This document shows positions 5,743-30,953 of a stretch of DNA of 32,000 nucleotides, piece after piece. The stretch is from Chloroflexota bacterium (GTDB lineage Bacteria; Chloroflexota; Anaerolineae; UBA4142). The notes under the pieces are model-generated. The model saw nothing but the letters and a program-made list of their open reading frames with translations. It was not told the DNA's origin and made no database searches. The DNA lies in assembly GCA_037440365.1 (NCBI GenBank), contig JBBIUF010000019.1, positions 1 through 32,000 on the forward strand, in the 5' to 3' direction. The position numbers and the translations under genes are program-made. Numbering within the stretch: position 1 is the first letter of the stretch; each line of letters starts with the position of its first letter.

Positions 5743-5789
5743 GGGATTCCTCCAGGATCAAGCTCACAGGTTACAGCCTGACAAGCAAG

Positions 5790-6713
5790 TTATTTTTGAA
5801 GCGTGACCGGCGCGGGTTCCGCTTTGGCTTCATTGCGATGCGTCCACCATGCGATGCCGCTGAGCAAAACAGCCACCGAGCCAAGCACCGCAGGAATTTT
5901 TTCCATCGCCGCCCAGGTCAACTTGGGCAGGGGTTCATTCGGCAAGTCCGTGCGGAAACCTAGCACATCAAAGGGCGTGGCGGTGAGATACAAGCGGGAC
6001 GTGCCGCCAATCACATTTTCGCCATAGACTTGATCAATATACTGAGTCGGGTTCTGGCGGATGATCGTATGCGCGGTCGCCAACAATTCTTCGCGACTGC
6101 CATAGCTCAGCGCTTTTGCCGGACACGCGGCGACACACGCAGGCTTGTCGCGTTTGCCATCCGCCATACACGCTTGCTGACATTTATTGATCTTGGGATT
6201 CGGCGAATTCCAATCGTACTTGGGAATGCCAAACGGACACGCCGTCATGCAATAGCGGCAACCGATGCACACATTGGCGTCATACGCCACCGTGCCATCC
6301 GCTTTTTTGTACAACGCACCCACCGGACACACTGACACGCACGCAGGGTCCTGGCATTGCATACAACCGAACTTGTACGTTTTGACAATAGGTTTGTTTA
6401 GATCTGTCGAAATGTTTTTAAAGCAAACAATCGAGAGGGTCGTTGCCGAAAGACACGTGGGATTGTCGTCAGTGGGCAGGTTGTTGGCAACCTTGCACGC
6501 AGTCTGGCAACTCTTGCAACCCACGCACTTGGTCGTGTCAATCAACACGGCTGAGCCGGCGCGCGGCGAAATTGGCACGGACGCATTCGGATTCAACAAC
6601 ACCGGTGGTGCAATCTTGGCTCCCACCCCGGCTAACGCCGCGCTCGCCCCCACTAATTTAAGAAAATCACGTCGTGAAATATTCATCACTCGCCTCCTTG
6701 CGGCAATCATCAA
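5790..6713 (-). CDS. HybA/HmcB-like 4Fe-4S ferredoxin subunit with Tat-like signal and C-terminal TM anchor
   Basis: N-terminal NISRRDFLKLVGASAALAGVG; cysteine motifs CVGCKSCQTACK, CMQCQDPACVSVCP, CIGCRYCMTACPFG, CQQACMADGKRDKPACVAACP; C-terminal VLGSVAVLLSGIAWW. Confidence 0.94.
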   Translation of the reverse strand: MMIAARRRVMNISRRDFLKLVGASAALAGVGAKIAPPVLLNPNASVPISPRAGSAVLIDTTKCVGCKSCQTACKVANNLPTDDNPTCLSATTLSIVCFKNISTDLNKPIVKTYKFGCMQCQDPACVSVCPVGALYKKADGTVAYDANVCIGCRYCMTACPFGIPKYDWNSPNPKINKCQQACMADGKRDKPACVAACPAKALSYGSREELLATAHTIIRQNPTQYIDQVYGENVIGGTSRLYLTATPFDVLGFRTDLPNEPLPKLTWAAMEKIPAVLGSVAVLLSGIAWWTHRNEAKAEPAPVTLQK

Positions 6714-6749
6714 CGCACGTTCGCCTGGAGCTTGCCAAGCGAGCGTGGG

Positions 6750-7136
6750 TTACACGCCCAGCGCTTTCGGTTGATACAGCGCACAGGTAAAACATTCGGC
6801 ATTCACATTGCCGCCATCGGCTTGCAGTGCCAGCCAGCACGGCAGATCAGGATGTTGCGCCGCGGCGTTCTGCGCGCGCATCGTCGCTTGATTCTGGAGC
6901 GTATCCCAGCAATGCCCTTGCGCCTCAATTGTTTTCGCCGCGCGCGCCGGGAACGGAATAATTTTTGCGGTGGGGCGCACGACGCGGCGAATTTCGGTTT
7001 GCGGTTGCAATTTCTTTTCGAGCCAGCGTCCGAACGCCAGCGTCAACACGAGCGGCACGCCCACCCGCAAGGCGAACATCACAATCAAACCCGCCAAGTC
7101 AATCAACCCATCGAGCAACATGGTACACCTCCGCAA
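6750..7136 (-). CDS. Small single-TM protein with four-cysteine C-terminal tail, NrfD-operon associated
   Basis: 128 aa; N-terminal helix MFALRVGVPLVLTLAFGRWLEKKLQ; tail cysteines GHCWD, LPCWLAL, AECFTCAL. Same orientation and tight spacing with the ferredoxin gene. Confidence 0.75.
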   Translation of the reverse strand: MRRCTMLLDGLIDLAGLIVMFALRVGVPLVLTLAFGRWLEKKLQPQTEIRRVVRPTAKIIPFPARAAKTIEAQGHCWDTLQNQATMRAQNAAAQHPDLPCWLALQADGGNVNAECFTCALYQPKALGV

Positions 7137-7504: not shown

Positions 7505-7891
7505 GTGGGCAATGCTAAACTAGCTGACATTGCGCAGATCATGAAAATCCTCGGCGACCCGTCGCGTTTGGCGATTTTCAATTTGCTCATGCAAGGTGTG
7601 CAATGCAATTGCGAGCTGGGCAACAAGCTCAACCTACCGATGAATCTCATTTCGCATCACCTCAAAGTGTTGCGCGTGGCAGGCTGGGTGAACGCCGCGC
7701 GCGATCCAACTGACGCGCGTTGGATTTATTATTCAGTGAACGATCAAGTGCTGGAGCAACTGCGCGGGCAATTAAATCAATTTCTGGACGCGCGGCGGAT
7801 TCAACCGCGTCAGCCAGTGTGTGGACCACATGCACTTGCGAAAAAACCACCCCAATCCTATCGTTCAATGACTAACCGGAGGCAATCTTGA
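7505..7891 (+). CDS. arsR: ArsR/SmtB-family transcriptional repressor
   Basis: GTG start; ADIAQIMKILGDPSRLAIFNLLMQGVQCNCELGNKLNLPMNLISHHLKVLRVAGWVNAARDPTDARWIYYSV; heads the arsenic cluster. Confidence 0.93.
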   Translation: MGNAKLADIAQIMKILGDPSRLAIFNLLMQGVQCNCELGNKLNLPMNLISHHLKVLRVAGWVNAARDPTDARWIYYSVNDQVLEQLRGQLNQFLDARRIQPRQPVCGPHALAKKPPQSYRSMTNRRQS

Positions 7892-8319
7892 AACGTCGGG
7901 TTCTGTTTTTGTGCACCGGAAATTCAGCGCGTAGTCAGATCGCCGAAGCACTCGTGAATCATCAGCGCGGCGACCAATGGCAAGCGTTCTCGGCTGGGAC
8001 ACGCCCCACCGGTAGCGTGCACCCATTCGCAATTGAGGTGATGCGTGAAATTGGCGTGGACATTGCCAACGCCCACAGTAAATCCACGGATGAATTTCGC
8101 AACGCCGCGTTCGATCAAGTTGTGACGGTGTGCGATCATGCGGCGGCGGATTGTCCCGTGTGGCTGGGTCAGGGCAAACGCACGCACATCGGTTTTCCTG
8201 ATCCCGCACGTGGCACGCTGGCTGATTTTCGCGCAACCCGCGACGCCATTCAAACTCGCGTCATTCCATTTTTGGATGCCCAATCAGATGAGCTGGCGCG
8301 AGCTGAGGTGGATCAATGA
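7888..8319 (+). CDS. arsC: Arsenate reductase, low-molecular-weight phosphatase type
   Basis: FLCTGNSARSQIAEAL P-loop-like CX5R motif; TVCDHAAADCPVW; GFPDPARG; overlaps the arsR stop. Confidence 0.94.
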   Translation: MKRRVLFLCTGNSARSQIAEALVNHQRGDQWQAFSAGTRPTGSVHPFAIEVMREIGVDIANAHSKSTDEFRNAAFDQVVTVCDHAAADCPVWLGQGKRTHIGFPDPARGTLADFRATRDAIQTRVIPFLDAQSDELARAEVDQ

Positions 8320-9569
8320 GTGGCGCGCAAACATTTTGGGCGGACGTAGATGACCAAGGTCGGCTTGCGTTACCCGCCGAACTCGTCGCGCAATACGGCT
8401 TGACGCCGGGCGCGCGTCTGCGAATTGATAGCGAAACGAATAGCGTGCGCCTGCATCGCCCAGTGACCCAGCTCGTCAAACTCTACATCGAACCGACCAG
8501 TCGGTGTAATCTCACCTGCCGCACCTGTATGCGCAACACATGGGATGAGCCGCTCGGTTCGATGACCATGCCAACGTTTGATCGCATTGTGCAGGGGCTA
8601 GCCCAGTTGACGACCCCGCCGACGATCATGTTTGCCGGGATTGGCGAGCCAACCGCGCATCGTCGGTTGGTCGAGATGATTCAACGCGTCAAAGCGCTGG
8701 GGTCTAGTGTCGAGCTGACCACGAATGGCACGTTGTTGACCGAGGAACGTTCGCGGCAATTGATCGCCGCGGGGTTGGATGTGTTGTGGGTTTCGCTTGA
8801 CGGGGCAACGCCGGAGAGTTACGCCGATGTGCGTTTGGGCGCGCAGTTACCTCACGTGATTGAAAATCTTTCGCGCTTGCGCAAATTGCGCCGCGGGGCG
8901 CACCATCCCAAACCGGAAATCGGGATTGCGTTTGTCGCCATGAAACGGAACATTAACGATCTCCCGCGCGTGTTGGCGCTGGGTCGCTCGGTCGGCGCAA
9001 AACTTTTTTCGGTCAGCAACGTTCTGCCGTATACCGCCGAGATGCGCGATGAATTGCTCTATGCACGCACGTTGATGGACATTACCTATTTTTCATCGTC
9101 TTGGTTACCGCGTCTCAGTTTGCCCAAGATGGATATTAACGAAACAACGCGCGATGCGTTTTTTAGCGCATTGAACAGCGGCGCCAGTGTCACCTTTGCC
9201 GGCAATAAATTGAGCGGCGCGAATGATGTCTGCGGATTTATCGAAGGCGGCGCGATGGCGATTGGGTGGAATGGCAATGTGAGTCCTTGCCCACCGCTGT
9301 TGCATAATCATGTGGTTTATTTGCGCGAACGCCAGCGCGCGCTCCGCCGTCATATCATTGGCAATTTGAACGAGCGCGACCTGGTGGATTTGTGGGCGGA
9401 TCCCGCTTACGTGGCTTATCGCGAGCGCGTGCAAGGGTTCGGTTTCGCGCCTTGCACATTTTGCGGCGGCTGTGACATGCTGGATTCCAACACCGAGGAC
9501 TGTCTCAGCAATCAATTCCCGGTTTGTGGCGGATGTTTGTGGGCGCAAGGCGTGATCCAGTGTCCATAA
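8316..9569 (+). CDS. AbrB-like N-terminal domain + radical SAM + SPASM-like C-terminus; resembles tungsten-cofactor oxidoreductase radical SAM maturases
   Basis: N-term ADVDDQGRLALPAELVAQYGLTPGARLRID (AbrB/SpoVT-like); EPTSRCNLTCRTCMRNTW (CX3CX2C); FAGIGEPTAH; C-term CTFCGGCDMLDSNTEDCLSNQFPVCGGCLWAQGVIQCP. Confidence 0.85.
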   Translation: MSGAQTFWADVDDQGRLALPAELVAQYGLTPGARLRIDSETNSVRLHRPVTQLVKLYIEPTSRCNLTCRTCMRNTWDEPLGSMTMPTFDRIVQGLAQLTTPPTIMFAGIGEPTAHRRLVEMIQRVKALGSSVELTTNGTLLTEERSRQLIAAGLDVLWVSLDGATPESYADVRLGAQLPHVIENLSRLRKLRRGAHHPKPEIGIAFVAMKRNINDLPRVLALGRSVGAKLFSVSNVLPYTAEMRDELLYARTLMDITYFSSSWLPRLSLPKMDINETTRDAFFSALNSGASVTFAGNKLSGANDVCGFIEGGAMAIGWNGNVSPCPPLLHNHVVYLRERQRALRRHIIGNLNERDLVDLWADPAYVAYRERVQGFGFAPCTFCGGCDMLDSNTEDCLSNQFPVCGGCLWAQGVIQCP

Positions 9570-9617
9570 CATCTGCATCGAACCGGTGTGGCATAATCAA
9601 CTCAAGGAGAATGGAAT

Positions 9618-10712
9618 ATGCACCAAGCAACTGCAGTGACGCAATCGCAAAGCAATGTATTTGAACAGCTCTCCTGGCTTGATCGTTTTTTGCCGCTCTG
9701 GATTTTTGCGGCTATGGCACTCGGCATCCTGCTCGGCGCGGTCGCGCCCGGCATCAAGGCTGTGTTCAACGCGCTTTCGATTGGAACCGTATCGCTCCCG
9801 ATTGCAATCGGTTTATTGTGGATGATGTATCCCGTCCTGGCTAAAGTCAAGTATGAAGAACTAGGCAAGATCGCTCAAGCGTGGGAGCAATTCGGCGTCT
9901 CGTTAATCCTGAACTGGATCATTGGTCCGATCATCATGTTTGCGCTCGCGTGGATTTTTCTGCCTGACCTGCCGCACTTTCGCACTGGCTTGATCATCAC
10001 CGGTTTGGCGCGGTGTATTGCGATGGTCCTGATCTGGAACATGCTCGCCGGCGGCGACAGCGAATACTGCGCGGTGCTGGTCGCGCTGAATAGCATTTTC
10101 CAAATCGTGATGTACTCACCGCTGGCATATTTCTTCCTGGTCATTGTGCCGGGATGGTTTGGCGTGCCAGGCACCGTCGTCAACATTGAGATGGGCGACA
10201 TTGCCAAAAGCGTCTTGATCTTTTTAGGGATTCCACTCGCGGCAGGTATTTTCACACGCTTTTATTTTCTGCGCACCCGCGGCACGGTATGGTATGAAAC
10301 GCGCCTGATGCCGCGCCTGGGTCCAACCGCCATGGTCGGTTTATTATTTACAATTGTCGTCATGTTCTCAATGCAAGGCGACAAGATTCTCGCCGCGCCG
10401 CTCGACGTAGTGCGCGTGGCGATCCCGCTATTAGCATATTTCGTCATCATGTTCTTTACATCATTCGCGTTATCACTCTGGCGCAAATTCCCGTACGAAC
10501 TCGCGGCAACGCAATCGTTCACGGCGGCAAGCAACAATTTTGAATTGGCGATTGCGGTCGCGGTCGGCACCTTTACGATCGCGTCGCAAGAAGCGCTCGC
10601 GGCGGTGATTGGTCCGCTGATCGAAGTGCCGGTACTGATCGGCTTGGTCTATGTGGCGCTGTGGCTTAAACGAACCTGGTTCGCCAGCGCGCCAACACAA
10701 TCGGCAAGCTAA
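9618..10712 (+). CDS. acr3: ACR3-family arsenite efflux permease
   Basis: LDRFLPLWIFAAMALGILLGAVAPGIKAVFNALSIGTVSLPIAIGLLWMMYPVLAKVKYEEL; WIFLPDLPHFRTGLIITGLARCIAMVLIWNMLAGGDSEYCAVLVALNSIFQI; FTAASNNFELAIAVAVGTF. Confidence 0.97.
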   Translation: MHQATAVTQSQSNVFEQLSWLDRFLPLWIFAAMALGILLGAVAPGIKAVFNALSIGTVSLPIAIGLLWMMYPVLAKVKYEELGKIAQAWEQFGVSLILNWIIGPIIMFALAWIFLPDLPHFRTGLIITGLARCIAMVLIWNMLAGGDSEYCAVLVALNSIFQIVMYSPLAYFFLVIVPGWFGVPGTVVNIEMGDIAKSVLIFLGIPLAAGIFTRFYFLRTRGTVWYETRLMPRLGPTAMVGLLFTIVVMFSMQGDKILAAPLDVVRVAIPLLAYFVIMFFTSFALSLWRKFPYELAATQSFTAASNNFELAIAVAVGTFTIASQEALAAVIGPLIEVPVLIGLVYVALWLKRTWFASAPTQSAS

Positions 10713-10752
10713 ACCCAGCGATAGAAATAAATTTTGATTAAGGAAAATCCCA

Positions 10753-11502
10753 ATGACAAACCTGATCGCGCCCGATCAAATTCGGCAAGCGGTTCAAACG
10801 CATTACGCCGACCTGGCACGCAATGCAACCCCGTGTTGCGAACCCAGCGCGTGTGATTGCCATTCCAACTATCCCGATCCGCTGGCGAATGCCGTGCCGG
10901 CAGACATTGCCAATTTTTCGCTCGGTTGCGGCGATCCGATCACGCTTGCCGCGCTCCAGCCCGGCGAGACCGTGATCGATCTCGGATCAGGCGGCGGCTT
11001 GGATTGCTTTCTTGCCGCGCAACGGGTTGGCGCAACCGGGCACGTCATCGGCGTGGATATGACGCCGGAAATGTTAGCCAAAGCGCGTGGGAATGCGGAA
11101 CGAATGGGGATCGCGAATGTCGAATTTCGTAACGGATACATTGAACATTTGCCTGTGGCTGACGGCGAAGCAGATGTCGTAATCTCAAATTGCGTGATCA
11201 ATCTGTCGCCCGACAAGTCCCAAGTCTTTCGCGATATTTATCGCGCTCTGCGATCCGGCGGACGCCTCTCGGTGTCGGATATTGTCACGCATGGCGACTT
11301 GCCGGAACTCGTGCAAAAAAGTATGGAAGCCTGGGGCGCATGTGTCGCAGGCGCGTTAGATGTCAAGGACTATATCGGCGGCTTGCGAACCGCCGGGTTT
11401 GTGGATATTCACGTCGAGCCCAAAGGCAAGTTTGATGCAGGATTATCCAATTTGCCAATTCACGCGCCGTTCTCGGCAAGCATCACCGCGCGCAAACCCT
11501 GA
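10753..11502 (+). CDS. arsM: Arsenite S-adenosylmethionine methyltransferase
   Basis: VIDLGSGGGLDCFLAAQRVGATGHVIGVDMTPEMLAKAR; VISNCVINLSPDK; EAWGACVAGAL; N-terminal CC/CDC cysteines; arsenic operon context. Confidence 0.95.
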   Translation: MTNLIAPDQIRQAVQTHYADLARNATPCCEPSACDCHSNYPDPLANAVPADIANFSLGCGDPITLAALQPGETVIDLGSGGGLDCFLAAQRVGATGHVIGVDMTPEMLAKARGNAERMGIANVEFRNGYIEHLPVADGEADVVISNCVINLSPDKSQVFRDIYRALRSGGRLSVSDIVTHGDLPELVQKSMEAWGACVAGALDVKDYIGGLRTAGFVDIHVEPKGKFDAGLSNLPIHAPFSASITARKP

Positions 11503-17553: not shown

Positions 17554-18444
17554 ATGATGTTTGGATCCGATATTCTCGACGTAGCCATTGGTATGATCTT
17601 TGTATTCTTTACCGTCAGTCTGGTTTGCACGGCGATTGGCAATAAGGTTTCCGATTTTCTCAACTGGCGTTCCCAAAACCTTGAAAACGGCATTCGCACT
17701 TTGATTATGAGCGGCGACAGCAAAATGGTCGAGCAACTCTACGCGAGTTCCCTGGTCAAATCAATTGTGCCCGACGGCAAGAAACCCATTTGGATTCCGG
17801 ACAAGACGCTGATGCTCGCGGTGTTTGACACCTTTGTGCCAGGCGCAGCGGGGTTGACCAAGATTGACGAATTGCGCGATGCGATCAAGCAAATGAACGA
17901 CAGCTCGCCGCTCAAGGGCAAATTGCTCGCGCTTGTCACTGCCGCGGGTGATAACGTCGACGGTTTGTACAAGAATTTCGCGCAATGGTACGATTCAGTT
18001 GAAGCTCAAATGACGGCCGTGTATAAGCAAAAAATGTGGCTCTTTTCCATGGGCGTGGGCGTCGTCGTGAGCATCGTCTTGAATGTGGATACCATTGCGG
18101 TGGGTCAAAGTTTGTGGCGCGATTCGGCGGTGCGCGCGCAAGTAGTTTCCGCCGCTAATCAATATACCGTGCAGGCCGTCCAAAGCGTAAACGCCCAAGC
18201 CGCGCAAGAGAATACACAAAAAGCCATCCAGACCTTGAATCGGCTCAACCTGCCCATTGGCTGGAATGTCACCGTCAAACCCGCCATGTCTATCGCGCCA
18301 ACCGATTTCGTAGCCGCCACCGTTCCGATCGGCGGTCTCGCCTGGTTACTCAAACTTGCAGGATGGTTGGTTACCGGCGCGGCGGGCGCGCTGGGTGCAC
18401 CGTTCTGGTTCGACATTTTGAAAAAAGTGACCAATCGCGGATAA
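17554..18444 (+). CDS. Conserved-looking membrane protein of unknown function
   Basis: 296 aa; N-terminal TM VAIGMIFVFFTVSLVCTAIGNKVSDFL, internal TM MWLFSMGVGVVVSIVLNVDTIAVG, C-terminal TM plus GAPFWFDILKKV. Confidence 0.7.
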   Translation: MMFGSDILDVAIGMIFVFFTVSLVCTAIGNKVSDFLNWRSQNLENGIRTLIMSGDSKMVEQLYASSLVKSIVPDGKKPIWIPDKTLMLAVFDTFVPGAAGLTKIDELRDAIKQMNDSSPLKGKLLALVTAAGDNVDGLYKNFAQWYDSVEAQMTAVYKQKMWLFSMGVGVVVSIVLNVDTIAVGQSLWRDSAVRAQVVSAANQYTVQAVQSVNAQAAQENTQKAIQTLNRLNLPIGWNVTVKPAMSIAPTDFVAATVPIGGLAWLLKLAGWLVTGAAGALGAPFWFDILKKVTNRG

Positions 18445-18450
18445 CCTCGA

Positions 18451-18483
18451 ACGCCTTGCAGAAAAATCTGCAAGGCGTTTTTT
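18451..18483 (+). terminator. Rho-independent terminator
   Basis: ACGCCTTGCAGA-AAAA-TCTGCAAGGCGT followed by TTTTT; 7 nt after the preceding stop codon. Confidence 0.93.
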
Positions 18484-18680: not shown

Positions 18681-18833
18681 ATTCAAGGTTGACAGCAAGT
18701 AGAGGTTACGTTAAAATACCGTAAGAAATTCTCCGCGCGATATTTCATTTCGATGCAACTTGCCGGAGTTGCTTGGAATGACGAACGGTTCCAACGCAGT
18801 TGTTAGGCAAAAACAATTTCCTAGGAGGGAAAC

Positions 18834-20645
18834 ATGAACGGATTTGCCAATCGGGTTGCCCATGTCGATTTATCGACAGGGAAAGTTGCGTACGAGCCAA
18901 TCCCAGAAGAATGGGCGCGCAAGTATATTGGCGCGCGCGGGCTCGGCGTCAAGTACGTGTTTGAGAACGGACCCCAGGTTGATCCCCTTAGCCCCGAAAA
19001 CATCCTCTGCTTTATGAACGGTCCGCTGACTGGCTCGGAAGCCAACATGAGCGGGCGCATGGCAATTGTGACCAAGTCACCTTTGACTGGCACCGTCACC
19101 GATAGTCATCATGGCGGTTGGTCGGCGGCGCGCTTGCGCTGGGCTGGATTGGATGGTTTGATCTTCAAGGGCAAGTCGGCTAAACCGGTTTATGCCTATG
19201 TGCATGATAACACGGTCGAGTTGCTCGATGCATCTGAACTTTGGGGCAAGGGTGTCCACGCCACAGTCAAATTTTTCCAAGCCAAGTACGGCGAAAAAGA
19301 TTTGAGCGTGATCGCCATCGGCCCTGCCGGTGAAAACCTGGTGCGCTATGGCGCATGGGTCAACGAAAACGATCGCGCGAGCGGTCGCGGCGGCACGGGT
19401 TGCGTAGGCGGCAGTAAAATGCTCAAAGCCGTCGTCATCAAATCCGAACGCAGAATTCCACGCGCGGCGGATCGTGAAAAATGGGACGCGGCGCATAAAC
19501 GCGCGCTCGCAACCATCATGGACGAAAAGAACATTACCAGCCCACGCAAAGGCGGCTTGTCGGTCTATGGCACGAACGTATTGACGAACATCACAAGCAA
19601 CATGGGCGCATATCCAGTCCGCAACGGTCAGTCCACCTCGTTTGGCGATCGCGCCGAATTTCTGAGCGGCGAGTACGTCAAAGCGAACATCCTGGTCAAC
19701 GATCCCACGTGCCATGCTTGCCCGGTCGCGTGCAAAAAAGAAGTTGAGATTAAAGATGGTCCATTCAAAGGCCTGCGCATGGAAAGCATCGAGTACGAAC
19801 CCGCGTGGTGCCTCGGCGGCAACTGCGGCAACGATAACATTGCCGCGGTCGCCAAGATGATCGATCAAGCCAACGACTATGGCATGGACGCCATCGAAAT
19901 CGGCGATGTGCTGGCAACCTTCATGGAAGCCACCCAGCGCGGCTATGTCAAAGACGACGCCGGCTTGCAATGGGGCGATTACATGAGCATGGTTGCCACC
20001 GTGGATCAAGTCGCGTTCCGCAAGGGCATCGGCGATGTGCTGGCAAACGGCGTGGATGCAACGGCAGACCATTACGGTCATCACGAACTTGCGATGAGCG
20101 TCAAGGGTCAAGGCATCCCGGCATACGATCCGCGCGGCATCAAAGGCATGGGCATTGCGTATGCCACCAGCAACCGCGGCGCCTGTCACCTCCGCGCCTA
20201 CACGCCCGCCGTCGAGCTTTCGCTTATTTCGCTCACCGCCGATCCGCTCCTGTGGAAAGGCAAAGGCGAACTGACGAAACTATTGCAAGACCTGCACGCA
20301 TTCTCTGATAGTCTCGACCTGTGCAAATTTAGCGCGTTCGCCGAAGGCGGCGATGAGTACGCGCAACAGTATGCCGCAACGATGGGCGTCGAGTATACCG
20401 CGAACGATGTGCTGAAAGCCGGCGAGCGCATCTACAATCTCGAACGCTACTACAACAACCTGGCTGGTTTCCGCGAAGGCAGTGATTACCTGCCCAAGCG
20501 TTTCACGGACGAACCCTCAACCGAAAAAGGTTCCAAGGGTCACGTCTCGGAATTGCCGCAAATGCTGGACGAGTATTACACGGCACGCGGCTGGGTCAAT
20601 GGCGTGGTGCCGGAAGCCAAGTTGAAGGAACTGGAAATTTTGTAA
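18834..20645 (+). CDS. Aldehyde:ferredoxin oxidoreductase family tungstopterin enzyme
   Basis: GARGLGVKYVFENG; GPLTGSEANMSGRMAIVTKSPLTGTVTDSHHGG; 4Fe-4S motif DPTCHACPVACKK ... DLCKF; EYEPAWCLGGNCGNDNI; IKGMGIAYATSNRGACHLRAY. Confidence 0.97.
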   Translation: MNGFANRVAHVDLSTGKVAYEPIPEEWARKYIGARGLGVKYVFENGPQVDPLSPENILCFMNGPLTGSEANMSGRMAIVTKSPLTGTVTDSHHGGWSAARLRWAGLDGLIFKGKSAKPVYAYVHDNTVELLDASELWGKGVHATVKFFQAKYGEKDLSVIAIGPAGENLVRYGAWVNENDRASGRGGTGCVGGSKMLKAVVIKSERRIPRAADREKWDAAHKRALATIMDEKNITSPRKGGLSVYGTNVLTNITSNMGAYPVRNGQSTSFGDRAEFLSGEYVKANILVNDPTCHACPVACKKEVEIKDGPFKGLRMESIEYEPAWCLGGNCGNDNIAAVAKMIDQANDYGMDAIEIGDVLATFMEATQRGYVKDDAGLQWGDYMSMVATVDQVAFRKGIGDVLANGVDATADHYGHHELAMSVKGQGIPAYDPRGIKGMGIAYATSNRGACHLRAYTPAVELSLISLTADPLLWKGKGELTKLLQDLHAFSDSLDLCKFSAFAEGGDEYAQQYAATMGVEYTANDVLKAGERIYNLERYYNNLAGFREGSDYLPKRFTDEPSTEKGSKGHVSELPQMLDEYYTARGWVNGVVPEAKLKELEIL

Positions 20646-20681
20646 GCCGGGCAAGAGTGTGTCTGCATAATTGTACAAAAA

Positions 20682-20711
20682 TTCGGGGCGACTGAAAACA
20701 GTCGCCCCGAA
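20682..20711. terminator. Strong hairpin between convergent genes, likely terminator (best U-run on the minus strand)
   Basis: TTCGGGGCGACTG-AAAA-CAGTCGCCCCGAA, 13-bp perfect stem; minus-strand reading is followed by TTTT. Confidence 0.75.
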
Positions 20712-20725
20712 CTATTTCAAATTGT

Positions 20726-20965
20726 TCATCCCCCGGCGCGAATTGTTTTCAATTCAAACGCCGCCAACATAATCGGAAGCGTTTTCTCATCGCCCTCAAA
20801 ATCTACGTGAATTGTGCCGATACGGAGCGAGCCCACCGGCAAAAATTCGCCGTCACGGATCGTCGCCGACCAATCCGCGCCGCGCACCACATAATCTTCG
20901 GTCACGCCGCCGCCGACTTCGATCAAATAATCACGCGCAAGCCACATGGGAATACCGCGATACAT
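20726..20965 (-). CDS. 79-aa MoaD-associated small protein, resembling the C-terminal domain of MoaD-related proteins
   Basis: MYRGIPMWLARDYLIEVGGGVTEDYVVRGADWSATIRDGEFLPVGSLRIGTIHVDFEGDEKTLPIMLAAFELKTIRAGG; starts 4 nt after the moaD-like stop. The longer track ORF start is inside the upstream gene. Confidence 0.75.
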   Translation of the reverse strand: MYRGIPMWLARDYLIEVGGGVTEDYVVRGADWSATIRDGEFLPVGSLRIGTIHVDFEGDEKTLPIMLAAFELKTIRAGG

Positions 20966-20969
20966 TCGC

Positions 20970-21257
20970 TCAATTCGCACAGCCACCTCCAACAGGCGGA
21001 AAAATATCCAGCGCGTCTTGTTCCGTGATCGGCGTGTCGAGTCCTTGCGGCAGGTATTCCGATTGTCGTCCGTTGACAAAGACGTGAATATAATCGGTTA
21101 ATTGCCCTGCCGCATCCCATACTTTTTCCGCCAACTTGGGACGAATATCCGTGACCGCTTTTAACGCCGTTCGCGCGGTCACCGGCGTCGCGGGATCAAC
21201 CACAACCGTTTTCCCGCCTGCCAATTCGCGCAATGTCGCATAAAAATTCACCCGCAT
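20970..21257 (-). CDS. MoaD/ThiS-like beta-grasp sulfur carrier protein with tail beyond diglycine
   Basis: MRVNFYATLRELAGGKTVVVDPATPV...YIHVFVNGRQSEYLPQGLDTPITEQDALDIFPPVGGGCAN; AGGGAG RBS upstream of ATG at 21257. Confidence 0.9.
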   Translation of the reverse strand: MRVNFYATLRELAGGKTVVVDPATPVTARTALKAVTDIRPKLAEKVWDAAGQLTDYIHVFVNGRQSEYLPQGLDTPITEQDALDIFPPVGGGCAN

Positions 21258-21364
21258 AAAAGCTCCCTTGTGATAATAGTCATAGCCGAAACCGACCCAT
21301 CCGTTTATACTACGAACCAGGTAAATCGCAAAGGTTGCGACAATCAACGAATGACAGGTGCACT

Positions 21365-22282
21365 ATGATTATAACACAAGCCGATCCAAAGCTACAACCA
21401 CTCGTCGTGCCAATGCTTGAAGTGAGCGGACTGATGCCAACACCCGGCGATGAATGGACGCGCTTGCGCCGCTTTGTCGGTTTTGATCACGCTGACGAGA
21501 TGGCAATGGTGCAAACGATCGAGCCGCTGTTCGCGCGCGGACTAGATATCGTCACAGCGAATTACGATTACTTGCAACGGGTGCCAGAGACCGCGGCGAT
21601 CCTGGGTTGGGAAAATGGCGCAGACCCAACACATCTCGCCGAGCGCCGCCGCTTTTTAACCGTGTGGCTTGCGCGCACCTTCGGGCTCGACCTGGGTACA
21701 GACTTTGCCGAGTATTTATTTTATGCGGGCAAAGCACACGCCGCGCACGGACCGCGTCACATTCACACGCCAGAAACCTGGATCACGGGCGGCATTAGTT
21801 TGACGCAGACCACCTTCGCGCGCATCATTGCCGAAAACGTGCGTGATGCCGCGCTTGCCGCGAATGCGATTGCCGGATGGAACAAGTATCTAATGATCCA
21901 ACTCGATCTGATGCTGATGGGCTATCGCGCCGCGCGCGCGCTTGACGACGGAACCCTGCCGGTGCCGGTGGCATTCTTTGGACGCTTACGCGACAAAGCC
22001 AATACCTCCGCACTCGTCGCACACGCCAATCCCGATGCCACCGTTAGCGAGGTGTTGCGCAAATTGCTCAACTATTTTCCCGCCGTGCGCAATGAAGCGA
22101 TGGAAATTGTGTGGCGTGAAAACGCTGAACCCGATTCACTGTGGTCGCACGTGGAACCCGTCTATACGCCCAAACCCGCATGGCGTTTGCTTTTGAATGG
22201 CAAAGACTTGCGGTATCACGGTGGATTTGATGTACGCTTGAGCGCCAACGATCAACTCGATTTTTTTCCGCCCGGACGCTAA
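21365..22282 (+). CDS. Protoglobin-like (globin-coupled-sensor-like) domain fused to C-terminal MoaD/ThiS-like beta-grasp domain
   Basis: N-terminal part LRRFVGFDHADEMAMVQTIEPLFARGLDIVTANYDYLQRVPETAAIL ... RRRFLTVWLARTFGLDLGTDFAEYLFYAGKAHAAHGPRHIHTPETWITGGISL; C-terminal VPVAFFGRLRDKANTSALVAHANPDATVSEVLRKLLNYFP...WRLLLNGKDLRYHGGFDVRLSANDQLDFFPPGR. Confidence 0.75.
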   Translation: MIITQADPKLQPLVVPMLEVSGLMPTPGDEWTRLRRFVGFDHADEMAMVQTIEPLFARGLDIVTANYDYLQRVPETAAILGWENGADPTHLAERRRFLTVWLARTFGLDLGTDFAEYLFYAGKAHAAHGPRHIHTPETWITGGISLTQTTFARIIAENVRDAALAANAIAGWNKYLMIQLDLMLMGYRAARALDDGTLPVPVAFFGRLRDKANTSALVAHANPDATVSEVLRKLLNYFPAVRNEAMEIVWRENAEPDSLWSHVEPVYTPKPAWRLLLNGKDLRYHGGFDVRLSANDQLDFFPPGR

Positions 22283-22304: not shown

Positions 22305-22341
22305 ACGGCGCGTTTGCCTTGTCGCAAACGCGCCGTTTTTT
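22305..22341 (+). terminator. Rho-independent terminator
   Basis: ACGGCGCGTTTGC-CTTGTC-GCAAACGCGCCGT followed by TTTTT. Confidence 0.92.
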
Positions 22342-22401
22342 CGTTTTTCAATCGAATCGTTTTGATGTATAATGCGCTCGTTCTCACCGAGGAGGATCAC
22401 G

Positions 22402-22824
22402 ATGGCGGAACGACCGATTCGCGTGTTGATTGCAAAACCAGGTTTGGACGGCCACGATCGCGGCGCCAAGGTTGTCGCACGCGCATTGCGCGACGCGGGC
22501 ATGGAAGTCATTTATACCGGCATTCGGCAAACGCCGGAAATGATCGCCGAAGCCGCACTGCAAGAAGACGTGGATGTCGTCGGGCTGTCGATCTTGTCCG
22601 GCGCGCACCTTGATCTCTTCCCGCGCATTGTTGCGCAACTCAAACAAAAACAATTGGATGATGTTCTGCTCGTCTGCGGCGGCATCATCCCCGATGAAGA
22701 TATCCCGTCGCTCAAACAGATGGGCTTTGCAGGCGCATTCGGTCCCGGCACATCCACGCAAGACTTGGCGCAGTTCATTCAAACTGAAATTGGCAAACGC
22801 CGCGCCGGAGCAGTCGCCGCGTGA
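22402..22824 (+). CDS. Methylmalonyl-CoA mutase cobalamin-binding (C-terminal/small) subunit
   Basis: [45 protein letters not shown] (DxHxxG), [22 protein letters not shown]; GGAGG RBS. Confidence 0.95.
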
Positions 22825-23759
22825 AAGTAGAATTGATCGAAGCGATCCGCGCCGGCCATCCTCGCGCCGTTGCGCGCGCCATCAGCGCGGTTGAACGCGG
22901 CGGCGCGGAAGCACGCGAGGTCATCGCCGGTATTTTTCGCTATACCGGACGCGCACACATTATCGGGGTGACGGGTGCGCCCGGCACCGGCAAAAGCACG
23001 CTCGTCAACGAACTAGCCAAGCACTATCGCCGACGCGGAAATCGCGTCGGTATTGTTGCCATCGACCCAACCAGCCCATTCAGCGGCGGCGCAATTCTCG
23101 GCGACCGCGTGCGAATGCAAGATTTGTCCGGCGATGCGGGGGTCTTTATTCGTTCGATGGCGACGCGCGGCAACTTGGGCGGGCTCGCGTCGGCAACTGC
23201 CGATACCGTCCAAGTGTTGGATGCCGCCGGATTTGAAATTGTTCTCGTCGAAACGGTTGGCGCGGGACAAAACGAAGTAGACGTTGCAAAGAACGCACAC
23301 ACCACGCTCGTCGTCGAAGCGCCGGGCATGGGCGACGACATTCAAGCGATCAAAGCCGGGATTCTCGAAATTGCCGATGTGCTGGTGGTGAACAAAGCCG
23401 ATCATGCCCAAGTCAGCGCAACCGTCGCCGCGCTCGAAATGAATTTAAACTTAAAGCCGCGCGTGGAAAATGATTGGCGCCCGCCTGTGCTGAAAACTGT
23501 TGCGCTCAATGGCGAAGGCATTGCAGATGTAGCAGACTGGATTGACAAGCATCGCGCTTTTTTACACGCGCATGATTTGCTCGTGACGCGCAACCAAGCG
23601 CGCATGCGCGCTGAACTGGAGCGCGTCGTTCAGCGTGAATTGATGCGGCGGTTGAGATATGGCGTCAACGGCGTGAACGTTGAAACACTTGTTGCACAAA
23701 TTGCCGCGCGCGAATTAGATGTATATACCGCGGCGGAACAGCTAATTGGATCGGAATAA
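22821..23759 (+). CDS. meaB: Methylmalonyl-CoA mutase-associated GTPase MeaB/ArgK
   Basis: [54 protein letters not shown]; [52 protein letters not shown]. Confidence 0.97.
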
Positions 23760-26489: not shown

Positions 26490-29400
26490 ATGTTGAAAAA
26501 TTTGTATACCAAAATCACAGGCGACCCGAACGAAAAAGAAGTCAAACGCCTGCGCGCACTCGTCGAAACGGAACTCAATCCGCTCGAAGCGCAATTGCAA
26601 AAACTCTCCGACGCGGAACTGCGCGCCAAGACCGATACATTCAAAACGCGCATCACGGAAGCGACAGAGGCCGCGCGCGCGCGCGTCGCCGAATTGCGCG
26701 ACCAGCTGACGACGGCGATAGACGATGACGAGCGGCGCGTGATCGACGAGCAAGTCAAGCAAGCCGACACGGAATTGGTAAACGCCGAGCGCGCGGTGTT
26801 GGACGAAATTCTGCCCGAAGCATTCGCGTGTGTGCGGGAAGCCAGCGTGCGCACGATTGGGTTGCGCCATTTCGACGTGCAAATGATCGGCGGCATTGTC
26901 CTGCATGAAGGCAAGGTCGCCGAAATGAAAACCGGCGAAGGCAAGACACTGGTCGCCACATTGCCGTTATACTTGAACGCGCTCACCGGTCACGGCGCGC
27001 ACCTAGTCACCGTGAACGATTATCTGGCGCGTTTGCACACGCAATTGATGGGCCCCGTCTATCACGCACTCGGCTTGACCGTTGGCGCGCTCCAGCAAGG
27101 CGAAGAGAAAAAAGCGTTGCTGTTCGATCCAACCATTACCGCGGCAACGCAAGAGATGAATTATTTGCGCGCCTGCACGCGGCAAGAAGCATACCGCGCC
27201 GACATTACCTATGGCACCAATAGCGAGTTTGGGTTTGATTACTTGCGCGATAACATGGCGTGGCGGTTGGAAGACCGCGTGCAACGCGAATTGTACTTCG
27301 CCATTGTGGACGAAGTGGACAATATCTTGATTGACGAAGCGCGCACCCCGCTTATCATTTCCGGTCCCGCGGGCGAAGCCTCCGACGAATACTATCGGCT
27401 GGCAGAACTCGTCCGCAAATTGTCGCCGGATCATTACACGGTTGATCAGCGCACGCGCGGGATCACGCTCACGGAAGCCGGGTATGATCGCGTCGAAGAA
27501 TTACTCGGCACACAACTGACAAACCCCGATCGCCCCGAAGAGACGGATACCCAGCAAGCCAAGATCATGCACCACCTCGAAGCCGCAATGAAAGCGCAAT
27601 ACCTGTTCCAACGCGACAAGGATTATATCATTCGCAAAGGTCAGGTCATTATTGTTGACGAATTTACCGGACGCTTGATGCCGGGTCGTCGCTGGTCGGA
27701 TGGTTTGCACCAAGCCGTCGAAGCGAAAGAGCACGTCGCGATCCAACAAGAGTCGGTGACGTATGCAACGATCACCTTGCAAAATTATTTCCGCCTCTAT
27801 AAAAAAATCGGTGGGATGACCGGCACGGCAAAAACCGAAGAGGATGAACTCTACAAAGTCTATGGCTTGAACGTCGTCGTCATTCCGACCAATCGTCCGA
27901 TGATTCGCAACGATCAACCCGACCTGGTCTATCGCAACGAAGAAGCCAAATGGCGCGCGGTGGCGGCGCAGATCGCACAGATCTATGCCAGCGGGCAACC
28001 GGTGCTGATCGGCACCACATCCGTCGAACAATCCGAGCGGCTCAGCGCGCGTTTTTCCGCCGCCCAACTTGAGCTCTACGCGCGCGCGCGTTTGCTCGCC
28101 AACGCCGTTGAAAACATTAAGGACTTGAACGACAAGCAACGCGCTACGCTCAAACTGATGCTGTCGCGCTCGCTCGATCAAGCACCAGAAAATTATGACG
28201 AAGTCCTGGCATCGCGTTTGTTTCACGAATTCAATCTCGGCGCAATCAGCAAAGCGACGATCAAGATGCCGGTGCGCGATTTGCTTGCGACGAAAAAACG
28301 TCTCGCGCAGAAAAGCGGCAAAGACAAGCCAACGTTAAGCGACAAGGATGCGCGCGAAATCGAAAATTTGCCTGAGCGCGATTTGAAATTTGCCGTCAAG
28401 CTGGAAGAGCGCAACCTGCGGCTCGATACCACGCAAACGCTGTGCGAAGAAATTGCCGCGCACCCCGACGACCTTGCCAAGATCGCGCCCAAATTCAACC
28501 TGTCGCTTGAAACCGTTACTGAAGTGTACACCGAATTGCATTTATCACGCGACGAGATGCGCGAAATCAATCGCGCGCTGATTGATTCGCTCGGCAATGT
28601 GGCGCAGGTGACCGCCGACTATCGCGTGCGCGCCGAAGATATGGACACCATCGTCAAGCGCATGTATTTGCGCGCGGCAGACGTAATCCAGTTGGCCAAG
28701 AAACTGGATGTCAATGCAGATCCGCTTGCCGCTGACAATGCCGCAACCGTGAGCGAAATTTTTAGCATTAGCGACAACGCGCTGCTCACGCGCCTTTTGC
28801 GCGAAGGCGTGCCGCACAATGTCTTGAATGCCAAGGAACATGAAAAAGAAGGCGGCATTATCGCGCGCGCGGGCGAACTGCACGCGGTCACGCTCGCAAC
28901 CAATATGGCGGGACGCGGCGTAGACATTAAACTCGGCGGCGAGTTGAGCGAAGAAACGCTGAATGAGGTCGGGCGCATTTTGCACCGCAACGGGACCGAT
29001 CCGTACAATCTCACGTTTGATCAGATCGCCGATGCGCTCACCAAAATTCCAAAAGAAAATTACGCGCTCGATGCGGAACACGTCGAAGCCTTTTTGAACT
29101 ATATGCGCGACCGCGCGCGCGTGCGTGAACTGGGCGGCTTGTGCATCATCGGCACAGAACGCCACGAGGCGCGCCGCATTGACAATCAGTTGCGCGGACG
29201 ATCGGGGCGTCAAGGCGATGCCGGGTCGTCGCGCTTTTACGTTTCGCTCGAAGACGAAATCATGCGCCGCATGGGCGGCAAAGGACTCGTGGATCGTGTT
29301 TGGATCGAGGACATTCCGATTGAACACGATTGGGTGACGCGCGCGATTGGGCAAGCGCAGATCAAGATGGAAGGGTACAACTTTGACATCCGCAAGCACC

Positions 29401-30953
29401 TGCTCGACTATGATGATGTGCTGAACAAACAACGCGAAATCATTTATGGGCAACGCTATCGCATTTTGACCAAAGCCGATCTCCGCGATGATGTGCGCGG
29501 CTGGCTCAAAGCAGAAATCGCGCGCATCCTCGCCGAAGATTTGAAAGCGAATGATCACGCAGAATCGCGGTTGCTCTTGCATCTCGATTCGCTTGTGCCT
29601 GGTTTTTTCATCAGCGAGACTGAAATGTGGCCCCCGTATTCGTTGGCGCTGGTGCAACGCGAACTCGGCGAGTTGAGCGATCTCGCATCTGCGCCCAAGA
29701 AAATTTTGGCGGCGGCACAGCGCGCCATGGAACAGCACCGCGAGTTTATTACAAACGCGCTGGTGCCGGAAGTCATCGCGCAATTTGAACAGCAAGCCAA
29801 ATCCACCTGGGACGAGATCGAAGACCTGGCAAAGAATACGCTCAGCACCTTGCGGCAGGAATCCGAAGAACAGCAACGTTCGTTCGACGCACGCACAATT
29901 ACGCAATCGGTTGGGCAAGCCGTGGGCATGACGCTCGACGTGCGCGCTGAACGCGGCACGGAAATCACCGAGCGCACGATCCTGGATGCGGTGCGCCGCG
30001 CGTTTGATGTGCGCGTCGCCGACCAGGTCGCGCGGCGCGTCGAAAAGCGCACGGGGCAACAATTCGATTTTCGCTGGACACCCGAAGGCGAATTACATTT
30101 TGATGAATTGCGCGCGGCCCTCGTCGCCGCGATTGATACCACGTATACCCAGCAAGCGAATAAACATCTCGCCGAGATCGAGCGTGAACTCGGCGAACGG
30201 ATCAAATCGGCGGACGATGTGCGCGGCACACGGCTCTCGTTCCTGCTGTTCACCCTTGCGCACACGCGCCACGCCGCGTTCGATCAGCGCACGCATCGCC
30301 GGTTTGAAGTACTGATGCCGCGCTTTCCCTGGGTGCATTTCGCCGCCGCGCAAATCGAGAAAATCGGCACGGATGAACTGCGCGACGAAATTTTCGCGTA
30401 CTGGAATCAATCGCTCGATCAACTCGAACCATTGCGTGGCGGCGCGGCGGCGTTCAACGATCTCTTGCGCGAGTTGATGCTCAGCACCGTTTCGACGTTG
30501 TGGGTGGATTATCTCACCGCGATTGAAGGTTTGCGCGAAGGCATTGGCTTGCAAGCATTTGGTCAGCGCGATCCGCTCGTCGAATACAAACGCCGCGCGT
30601 TTGAAATGTTCCAGGATTTGTACGCGCGCATTCGCTCCCAGGTCGTAACGTACGTATTCACGTACCAGTATCGCGGCTTTGCAAAACTGGAAAGCGAAGA
30701 TCGCGATCGCGCGTCGCGGCAAGCGGTGGAAGCCGTGGTGAGCCAAACCGCCGGCGTGAATCAAACAACGGTAAGCAGTCCACCCGCGCAAGTTGCCAGC
30801 GCGCAAAAAACCGACAGCAAAGCGCACAAGCCCGAGCCAGCGCGCAAACCGGTGAACGCGGCGGTCGGAGCCAAAATCGGACGCAACGATCCGTGCTGGT
30901 GCGGGAGCGGCAAGAAATATAAAAACTGTCACATGCAAAGCGATTCGCGATAA
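26490..30953 (+). CDS. secA: Preprotein translocase ATPase SecA, unusually long (1487 aa), with SEC-C zinc motif
   Basis: GEGKTLVATLPLYLNAL; YGTNSEFGFDYLRDNM; VDEVDNILIDEARTPLIISG; GTERHEARRIDNQLRGRSGRQGDAGSSRF; C-term GRNDPCWCGSGKKYKNCH. Confidence 0.97.
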   Translation: MLKNLYTKITGDPNEKEVKRLRALVETELNPLEAQLQKLSDAELRAKTDTFKTRITEATEAARARVAELRDQLTTAIDDDERRVIDEQVKQADTELVNAERAVLDEILPEAFACVREASVRTIGLRHFDVQMIGGIVLHEGKVAEMKTGEGKTLVATLPLYLNALTGHGAHLVTVNDYLARLHTQLMGPVYHALGLTVGALQQGEEKKALLFDPTITAATQEMNYLRACTRQEAYRADITYGTNSEFGFDYLRDNMAWRLEDRVQRELYFAIVDEVDNILIDEARTPLIISGPAGEASDEYYRLAELVRKLSPDHYTVDQRTRGITLTEAGYDRVEELLGTQLTNPDRPEETDTQQAKIMHHLEAAMKAQYLFQRDKDYIIRKGQVIIVDEFTGRLMPGRRWSDGLHQAVEAKEHVAIQQESVTYATITLQNYFRLYKKIGGMTGTAKTEEDELYKVYGLNVVVIPTNRPMIRNDQPDLVYRNEEAKWRAVAAQIAQIYASGQPVLIGTTSVEQSERLSARFSAAQLELYARARLLANAVENIKDLNDKQRATLKLMLSRSLDQAPENYDEVLASRLFHEFNLGAISKATIKMPVRDLLATKKRLAQKSGKDKPTLSDKDAREIENLPERDLKFAVKLEERNLRLDTTQTLCEEIAAHPDDLAKIAPKFNLSLETVTEVYTELHLSRDEMREINRALIDSLGNVAQVTADYRVRAEDMDTIVKRMYLRAADVIQLAKKLDVNADPLAADNAATVSEIFSISDNALLTRLLREGVPHNVLNAKEHEKEGGIIARAGELHAVTLATNMAGRGVDIKLGGELSEETLNEVGRILHRNGTDPYNLTFDQIADALTKIPKENYALDAEHVEAFLNYMRDRARVRELGGLCIIGTERHEARRIDNQLRGRSGRQGDAGSSRFYVSLEDEIMRRMGGKGLVDRVWIEDIPIEHDWVTRAIGQAQIKMEGYNFDIRKHLLDYDDVLNKQREIIYGQRYRILTKADLRDDVRGWLKAEIARILAEDLKANDHAESRLLLHLDSLVPGFFISETEMWPPYSLALVQRELGELSDLASAPKKILAAAQRAMEQHREFITNALVPEVIAQFEQQAKSTWDEIEDLAKNTLSTLRQESEEQQRSFDARTITQSVGQAVGMTLDVRAERGTEITERTILDAVRRAFDVRVADQVARRVEKRTGQQFDFRWTPEGELHFDELRAALVAAIDTTYTQQANKHLAEIERELGERIKSADDVRGTRLSFLLFTLAHTRHAAFDQRTHRRFEVLMPRFPWVHFAAAQIEKIGTDELRDEIFAYWNQSLDQLEPLRGGAAAFNDLLRELMLSTVSTLWVDYLTAIEGLREGIGLQAFGQRDPLVEYKRRAFEMFQDLYARIRSQVVTYVFTYQYRGFAKLESEDRDRASRQAVEAVVSQTAGVNQTTVSSPPAQVASAQKTDSKAHKPEPARKPVNAAVGAKIGRNDPCWCGSGKKYKNCHMQSDSR

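Follow-up and report, generated by a model that had tools for sequence, protein, structure and literature searches.

A widespread globin–MoaD-like fusion protein encoded beside a putative tungsten-type aldehyde:ferredoxin oxidoreductase in Chloroflexota

We describe here a locus of four genes (18834-22282) in a 32,000-nucleotide stretch of DNA, referred to below as the window, from a Chloroflexota bacterium (assembly GCA_037440365.1, contig JBBIUF010000019.1). The locus encodes an aldehyde:ferredoxin oxidoreductase (AOR), a small protein of the DUF1952 family, a stand-alone MoaD, and a fusion protein in which a globin is joined to a MoaD-like beta-grasp domain that has lost the C-terminal Gly-Gly of sulfur carriers. 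This fusion is a widespread and uncharacterised sensor architecture tied to tungsten enzymes and to nitrous oxide (N2O) reduction, and the occurrence of a globin attached to a degenerate MoaD in an AOR locus suggests that gas sensing is wired into the making or the use of an O2-sensitive metal enzyme. A sensor globin with a disabled ubiquitin-like sulfur-carrier domain as its sole output would be a new route from gas binding to response, probably via protein partners. No description of a protoglobin–MoaD protein was found in the literature searched, and in the databases its relatives go by no other names than 'MoaD/ThiS family protein' or 'protoglobin domain-containing protein'.

Architecture of the fusion protein

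The fusion gene (21365-22282, forward strand) encodes 305 amino acids with two Pfam matches, one to Protoglobin (E-value 3e-16; 60.2 bits against a cutoff of 25 bits) and a weak one to ThiS (6e-4). An AlphaFold (AF2) model built from an alignment of 20 homologs (predicted local distance difference test score, pLDDT, 88; predicted template modelling score, pTM, 0.85) has two domains, a helical globin (residues 27-194; nucleotides 21443-21946) and, after almost no linker, a beta-grasp domain (residues 198-305; 21956-22279). Foldseek matched the globin domain to AfGcHK and GsGCS (target-normalised TM-scores, TMt, of 0.89 and 0.84) and also to HemAT, BpeGReg and protoglobins. A profile alignment places H125 (21737-21739), Y67 (21563-21565) and L91 on His99, Tyr45 and Leu68 of AfGcHK, which we take to be its proximal heme ligand, distal tyrosine and distal leucine, respectively. 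Among 81 species-level fusion sequences sharing about 50% identity on average, the distal Y67 and the proximal H125 are invariant in every one, as are E93-R94-R95, G129-P130-R131 and several tryptophans; the globin E helix is strongly basic through an invariant E93-R94-R95-R96 motif and R104. By fold and residues the fusion is thus a sensor-family globin, which presumably binds heme, and the original prediction of a gas-sensor-like partner gains support from its retention of the heme ligands of O2-sensing globin-coupled sensors.

The resemblance to the globin-coupled sensors (AfGcHK, HemAT, EcDosC/BpeGReg, GsGCS and the Vibrio RsbR-type proteins) extends to the N-terminal position of an S-family globin with His F8 and Tyr B10 and to the direct attachment of the output domain to the H helix. 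The fusion differs from them in carrying a MoaD/SAMP1-like beta-grasp domain of about 108 amino acids instead of a kinase, cyclase, methyl-accepting chemotaxis protein (MCP), STAS or GGDEF/EAL module. None of these recognised transmitter classes is represented, the sole second domain of the fusion being a ThiS/MoaD beta-grasp. A review of this group lists MCP, kinase, diguanylate cyclase, adenylate cyclase, gene-regulatory and unknown-function outputs, with MoaD/ThiS unmentioned there (PMC7475203). Since the two domains fill the whole chain and leave no helix-turn-helix, we rejected a role of the fusion as a transcription factor, and neither a DNA-binding nor an enzymatic module was found in the chain by Pfam or in the model. 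The protein is cytoplasmic, and in the window it contains no cysteine at all.

The beta-grasp domain resembles SAMP proteins. Foldseek matched it to SAMP1 (4HRO, TMt 0.84) and SAMP3 (2M19, TMt 0.73) and also to MoaD; a profile search hit 2M19 with an E-value of 2.6e-9, and SAMP1 was the best NCBIfam family both for this domain (3e-9) and for the stand-alone MoaD of the locus, with which it aligns end to end at 25% identity (4e-6). In common with MoaD, SAMP1 and SAMP3 (Haloferax volcanii 3PO0 and 2M19; Pyrococcus furiosus 1VJK), it combines the beta-grasp fold with an FPP motif before the tail. It differs from them in three respects: it ends in Gly-Arg in place of x-Gly-Gly, it contains an insertion, and an exhaustive search found no stand-alone form of it. 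In 80 of 80 sequences the chain ends in FPPGR, a two-residue Gly-Arg tail thus standing where MoaD has V-G-G-G. Because the Gly-Gly is replaced, the domain cannot carry sulfur or be adenylated or thiocarboxylated, and we rejected it as a second sulfur carrier; a role as a 2Fe-2S ferredoxin was likewise rejected, there being no cysteine. When the beta-grasp domain alone was used in an exhaustive phmmer search of 1.84 billion representative sequences, 39 matches were obtained, and those inspected were fusions or fragments of fusions, save for one ordinary MoaD (4e-4). As judged from these comparisons, the domain is a branch of the SAMP1/MoaD lineage that is specific to the fusion and cannot be conjugated.

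The AOR locus and its conservation

The AOR gene (18834-20645, forward strand, 603 amino acids) encodes the Pfam domains AFOR_N (6e-73) and AFOR_C (4e-124) and a motif, C293-x2-C296-x3-C300...C497, that comprises four cysteines of the kind holding a [4Fe-4S] cluster. Its nearest relatives of solved structure are the tungsten-dependent WOR83 of H. volcanii (9q1t, 1.6e-205) and then the AOR of P. furiosus (1AOR, 2e-139). We consider it to be a tungsten-type enzyme, family membership and a TIGR04317-like maturase favouring tungsten over molybdenum. Relatives of this AOR on haloarchaeal plasmids have no globin neighbour.

On the reverse strand, the genes for MoaD (20970-21257, 95 amino acids, SAMP1-type) and DUF1952 (20726-20980, 84 amino acids) follow each other so closely that they overlap by 11 nucleotides. 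MoaD matches Pfam ThiS (6e-10) and NCBIfam NF041918 (SAMP1; 82.8 bits against a cutoff of 60), and the DUF1952 frame matches PF09189 with 25.1 bits, the cutoff being 22. The start of the latter is the GTG at 20980 rather than the ATG at 20962, giving a product that is 92% identical to a database protein (P0160). This GTG overlaps the final three codons of MoaD, whose glycine codons (GGA GGT GGC) supply the sequence GGAGGTG, which doubles as the DUF1952 Shine-Dalgarno motif (20970-20990, reverse strand). The two genes are therefore predicted to be translationally coupled via their overlap. MoaD in the window ends in FPPVGGG followed by a three-residue extension, CAN, whereas most orthologs stop at VGGG and some have one to three extra residues; trimming of the extension would be needed to expose a free C-terminal Gly-Gly, and the extension itself looks like a by-product of the overlap with the DUF1952 gene. 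With the AOR and fusion genes included, the identities and the order originally proposed, AOR(+), small MoaD-associated protein(-), MoaD(-) and globin-MoaD(+), were all recovered, with coordinates that agree within a few bases.

We found no description of DUF1952 in the literature searched. A search with the single sequence returned one protein, and the best 120 matches of a profile search were all Chloroflexota-type proteins of about 85 amino acids. A profile of these relatives matched the C-terminal domain of the 'MoaD related protein' of Thermus thermophilus (1V8C) with an E-value of 8e-12, and the AF2 model (pLDDT 92), whose fold is not a beta-grasp, matched the same structure in Foldseek (1e-7; query-normalised TM-score, TMq, 0.74). 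As 1V8C was the sole significant Foldseek match, the idea of a recognisable enzyme fold was rejected. MoaD and DUF1952 thus form one unit in both organisms, fused in Thermus and separate but putatively coupled at translation in the window; the Gly-Gly is internal in 1V8C, and in the window, where the genes are split, DUF1952 has a tail of its own. This ubiquitin-like tail reads K-x-x-x-R-[AG]-G-[GA] in the orthologs (loci L001-L078), with the lysine, the arginine and the penultimate glycine invariant; it ends in IRAGG in the window (20726-20737, reverse strand) and is probably flexible, because pLDDT is low there.

The original prediction described the locus as a self-contained island. This does not seem to be so, since a likely maturase of the AOR is encoded 9 kb upstream of the cluster. 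The gene at 8316-9569 (forward strand) specifies a radical SAM/SPASM protein of 417 amino acids whose best NCBIfam match is TIGR04317, 'tungsten cofactor oxidoreductase radical SAM maturase', with 278.9 bits (6e-83), a score below the equivalog cutoff of 380 bits. Full-length orthologs with 55-67% identity lie within the AOR cluster in six other loci (L002, L010, L013, L019, L052 and L063), and an ortholog adjoins the AOR in 22 of 80 loci collected with AOR as the seed. The linkage to AOR in relatives supports a role for this protein, which is probably a Cmo-like maturase of the tungsten cofactor. In the window its gene sits between arsC and acr3. The ars operon that it splits (7505-11502, forward strand) comprises arsR (7505-7891), arsC (7888-8319), acr3 (9618-10712; TIGR00832, 421 bits) and arsM (10753-11502), and the start of the maturase-like gene overlaps the arsC stop by 4 nucleotides.

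An AOR with a MoaD of its own is already a known theme. The AOR operon of Aromatoleum aromaticum includes two MoaD-like genes, aorD and aorE, which have been proposed to encode maturation factors for the tungsten cofactor (PMC6365974, PMC9295118) and which raise the specific activity of the enzyme 3.6-fold, from 4.5 to 16 U/mg (PMC9295118), an experimental precedent for a part of such neighbouring MoaD-like proteins in AOR maturation. Likened by its description, that operon resembles the window in placing MoaD-like genes beside a tungsten AOR, but it also encodes the electron-transfer subunits AorA and AorC, which are absent in the window, and no globin is described there. On plasmids of Azospirillum and Thermovirga the AOR is followed at once by a SAMP1-like MoaD, with neither a DUF1952 annotation nor a globin fusion. 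The set of helper genes that emerges here (MoaD, DUF1952, radical SAM maturase and fusion) could be co-expressed for the production of bacterial tungsten AORs. Enzymes of this type reduce carboxylic acids, and NosZ, which is relevant to a further context of the fusion, is the N2O sink; both are of interest for the environment and for biotechnology.

Relatives of the fusion number about 800 among clusters at 90% identity and 230 among the species representatives of GTDB, nearly all of them from Chloroflexota (including Anaerolineae, Caldilineaceae, Ardenticatenales and Promineofilum). These organisms abound in sludge, in sediments and in hot springs. We compared the neighbourhoods of 80 fusion loci by tblastn with the proteins of the window. 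Within the 48 loci that have at least 3 kb of flanking sequence on both sides, each from a different species, an AOR gene occurs no more than 6 kb from the fusion in 33 and MoaD in 28; for random genes the expectation for AOR is below 2%, a rough figure obtained from about 12 neighbours and a few AOR copies per some 4000 genes. Co-occurrence of the globin–MoaD protein with AOR, MoaD and DUF1952 is therefore a feature of many Chloroflexota genomes and is not confined to this contig. Linkage within the four-gene neighbourhood is conserved, but gene order is not: 14 orders were seen around the fusion, the commonest being fusion(+) AOR(+) DUF1952(-) MoaD(-), and the divergent order occurs only in the window and its two closest relatives, L001 and L002 (3 of 81 loci). 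In some loci MoaD, DUF1952 and the fusion, or the radical SAM gene, the fusion and AOR, form one co-directional row, and the fusion is co-directional with AOR in 39 loci. Clustering of all neighbouring open reading frames (ORFs) in the fusion loci brought up no further widely conserved partner.

When the comparison was seeded with AOR instead (80 loci), good flanks were available for 23 loci, all metagenomic and from this same clade of AOR, and among these MoaD was adjacent to AOR in 15, DUF1952 in 11 and the fusion in 6; the combination of AOR, MoaD and DUF1952 without a fusion was also observed directly. The core of the system is AOR, MoaD and DUF1952 (plus the radical SAM maturase), and the fusion is an add-on, because only about a quarter of the loci of the AOR clade carry it.

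MoaD and the fusion gene are separated in the window by a divergent spacer whose length and position, 107 base pairs at 21258-21364, are exactly those claimed originally, as read from the sequence. It contains a -10-like TATACT (21306-21311) and the Shine-Dalgarno motif AGGTG of the fusion gene (21356-21360). The further claim that this shared promoter region would couple production of the carrier and the sensor finds no backing in relatives: the divergent order is limited to the window, L001 and L002, so that the shared promoter is peculiar to this lineage, and we rejected it as a conserved coupling device. A promoter-like motif, TTGC...(17-18 nucleotides)...TATACT, precedes the fusion gene in 27 of 76 loci. 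In a subgroup of Ardenticatenales type TATACTGTACAnnGTACC comes after the -10 element upstream of the fusion; this GTAC-N3-GTAC repeat might serve as an operator.

Possible functions of the fusion

The fusion may be a heme-based sensor of O2 or NO whose MoaD-mimicking domain acts by protein contacts on the maturation or the use of an O2-labile metalloenzyme. We favour this explanation, though tentatively, and would rate its chance at a little short of even. In such a scheme the locus would supply dedicated maturation genes, namely the MoaD carrier, the translationally coupled DUF1952 and the radical SAM maturase 9 kb away; the heme of the globin, with His F8 and Tyr B10 as in AfGcHK, would bind O2 (or NO), and its ligation state would be relayed via the H helix into the directly attached beta-grasp domain. 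Lacking a Gly-Gly, this domain would dock as a MoaD mimic on a MoaD-binding surface, for which DUF1952, molybdopterin (MPT) synthase or the E1 enzyme, the radical SAM maturase and apo-AOR are candidates, and docking would gate the maturation or use of the O2-labile enzyme post-translationally. Heme binding, the gas that is bound, the surface docked on and the way in which control runs are the parts of this scheme that we infer. That the fusion is optional in the AOR clade (6 of 23 loci) is more in keeping with a regulator than with a factor essential for maturation.

Several observations weigh against a scheme centred on the tungsten enzyme. The beta-grasp domain has an insertion of about 17-25 residues relative to MoaD, with invariant tryptophan and tyrosine residues, so that its binding surfaces may differ from those of MoaD. 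The gap between the fusion and AOR has a median of about 170 nucleotides and the fusion has a promoter-like motif of its own, which does not indicate tight stoichiometric coupling. The fusion also has a second context: in 10 of 80 loci (L047, L048, L050, L056, L058, L059, L061, L069, L070 and L079, at about 6001-6870 in most) it lies co-directionally downstream of nosZ-nosD-nosF-nosY-nosL. It follows nosL directly in four of these loci and is close to it in several others, genes for cytochromes c, cupins or a Crp/FNR protein are found near it, and neither MoaD nor AOR is present within 6 kb. The nos-linked fusions retain every invariant residue, and in a neighbour-joining tree they make up three or more groups scattered among the AOR-linked fusions and do not form a separate clade. 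The nos context implies that a purely tungsten-specific role as a MoaD mimic is not the whole story and that the role of the fusion is not strictly tied to tungsten. Tungsten AOR and N2O reductase are both O2-sensitive and used anaerobically. In the P0016 lineage (L081, 8001-16903) the fusion has no AOR nearby and lies about 2.5 kb upstream of hypA-hypB-hypF-hypC-hypD-hypE; this cluster for [NiFe]-hydrogenase maturation is a third O2-sensitive metalloenzyme context of the fusion.

The fusion could instead be a general O2/NO sensor of anaerobic metabolism, with the beta-grasp domain as an adaptor for a partner encoded elsewhere, such as a Crp/FNR-type regulator or a partner-switching module. 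Its location next to AOR or nos would in that case mean that O2-sensitive pathways are regulated together, and not that it acts on tungsten-cofactor synthesis. The existence of two conserved and phylogenetically interleaved contexts (AOR in about 55 of 80 loci, nosZDFYL in 10 of 80), the Crp/FNR and cupin genes that flank the fusion in several nos-type loci, the one lineage near hypABFCDE and the fusion's own promoter-like motif would all be accounted for. A general sensor is less easily reconciled with an output domain that derives specifically from the AOR-associated SAMP1/MoaD lineage, with the placement of the fusion in one row with MoaD and DUF1952 in several loci, and with the lack of any candidate partner conserved across loci. 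We regard a general sensor as a serious possibility, though on balance a doubtful one.

The fusion might also be a redox or protective partner of AOR, in which the beta-grasp domain occupies the ferredoxin site and the heme either takes electrons from the [4Fe-4S] cluster or consumes O2 or NO locally, in the manner of a flavohemoglobin with AOR for its reductase. The cluster contains no ferredoxin gene, the fusion is often co-directional with AOR (39 loci, as given above), and, as the closest AOR of solved structure comes from the aerobe H. volcanii, exposure to O2 is a plausible problem for this AOR clade. The globin, however, is of the sensor (S) family and not of the flavohemoglobin family, its pocket resembles that of AfGcHK, three quarters of the AOR-clade loci do without the fusion, the nos-linked copies would be unable to contact the exported NosZ, and a beta-grasp domain devoid of cysteine has no means of holding an Fe-S cluster. 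Such a partner role therefore appears unlikely.

Sulfur-containing metal centres are built in both the AOR and the nos context. One reading, which we consider a long shot, is that the fusion acts as a heme-gated ubiquitin-like decoy, or as a heme-bound sulfide shuttle, controlling or feeding sulfur insertion into two unrelated centres, the pterin dithiolene of the tungsten cofactor and CuZ of N2O reductase; if true, gas sensing would for the first time be seen to act directly on the assembly of a metallocofactor, and the fusion would be a candidate for the elusive cytoplasmic source of the CuZ sulfide. A related version, slightly more far-fetched still, makes the fusion a sulfide-handling assembly factor whose heme binds HS- reversibly and whose MoaD-like domain targets the sulfur-inserting machinery, serving the pterin dithiolene of the tungsten cofactor and, by feeding NosFY, the CuZ sulfide. 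The position of the fusion immediately 3' of nosL in four loci and the invariant basic E-helix motif (E93-R94-R95-R96 and R104) would suit it, but the absence of both cysteine and Gly-Gly makes covalent sulfur carriage impossible, the Tyr B10 and leucine of the pocket match an O2 sensor, and rhodanese, cysteine desulfurase and E1 genes were not found nearby in the clustering of neighbouring ORFs. Least probable of all is that the globin has lost its heme and the fusion only assists AOR maturation as a structural accessory or a chaperone, without a sensing function, for, although heme-free globins exist in the sensor lineage (RsbR and photoglobin, for example; PMC8717448), the proximal histidine and distal tyrosine are invariant in all 81 sequences despite a family identity of about 50%, and the fold is nearest to that of the heme-bound AfGcHK.

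Borders of the locus and other genes of the window

The four genes are delimited by three hairpins which had been claimed as terminators and which proved to be real: they have perfect stems of 13-15 base pairs, folding energies of -23 to -28 kcal/mol and z-scores of -4 to -8.8, with 0 of 200 shuffled sequences as stable. The first (18449-18480, with a U run extending the element to 18486; forward strand; stem of 14 base pairs, -23.4 kcal/mol, z -3.95) closes the upstream gene at 17554-18444 and forms the left border of the cluster. The second (20682-20711; 13-15 base pairs) lies between the convergent AOR and DUF1952 genes and appears bidirectional, folding with -25.8 kcal/mol (z -7.6) on the forward strand and with -28.2 kcal/mol (z -8.8) on the reverse strand, where it has a U5 tail. 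The third, 3' of the fusion gene (22305-22336, then U6, the element reaching to 22346; forward strand), has a GC-rich stem of 13 base pairs and is the right border. A sigma-70-like promoter candidate for AOR at 18689-18717 (forward strand; TTGACA-17-TAAAAT) agrees with the consensus at 11 of 12 positions, and it is a consensus match only. An Rfam scan of the window and the cluster detected no family, the molybdenum/tungsten cofactor (Moco/Wco) riboswitch included, and an FNR/CRP-type box (TTGA-N6-TCAA) is absent upstream of AOR, MoaD and the fusion in every locus checked.

Three further regions of the window deserve mention. On the reverse strand, 4171-6713 codes for a membrane subunit of NrfD type together with a 4Fe-4S dicluster subunit whose N-terminus is Tat-like (RRDFLK); the pair resembles the small subunits of a polysulfide/tetrathionate-reductase-like complex, and no adjacent catalytic molybdopterin subunit was found among ORFs of at least 150 amino acids. 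Downstream of the cluster (22372-23759, forward strand) lies the gene for a stand-alone B12-binding protein of 150 amino acids, similar to the small subunit of methylmalonyl-CoA mutase; the gene overlaps at its 3' end with the beginning of a gene for a MeaB GTPase, and this pair is not accompanied by an adjacent mutase catalytic subunit. Finally, the gene at 26490-30953 (forward strand) encodes a SecA of 1487 amino acids, far above the usual length, in which large insertions interrupt the DEAD and P-loop domains: the match to SecA_DEAD covers residues 7-454 for a profile of 290 positions.

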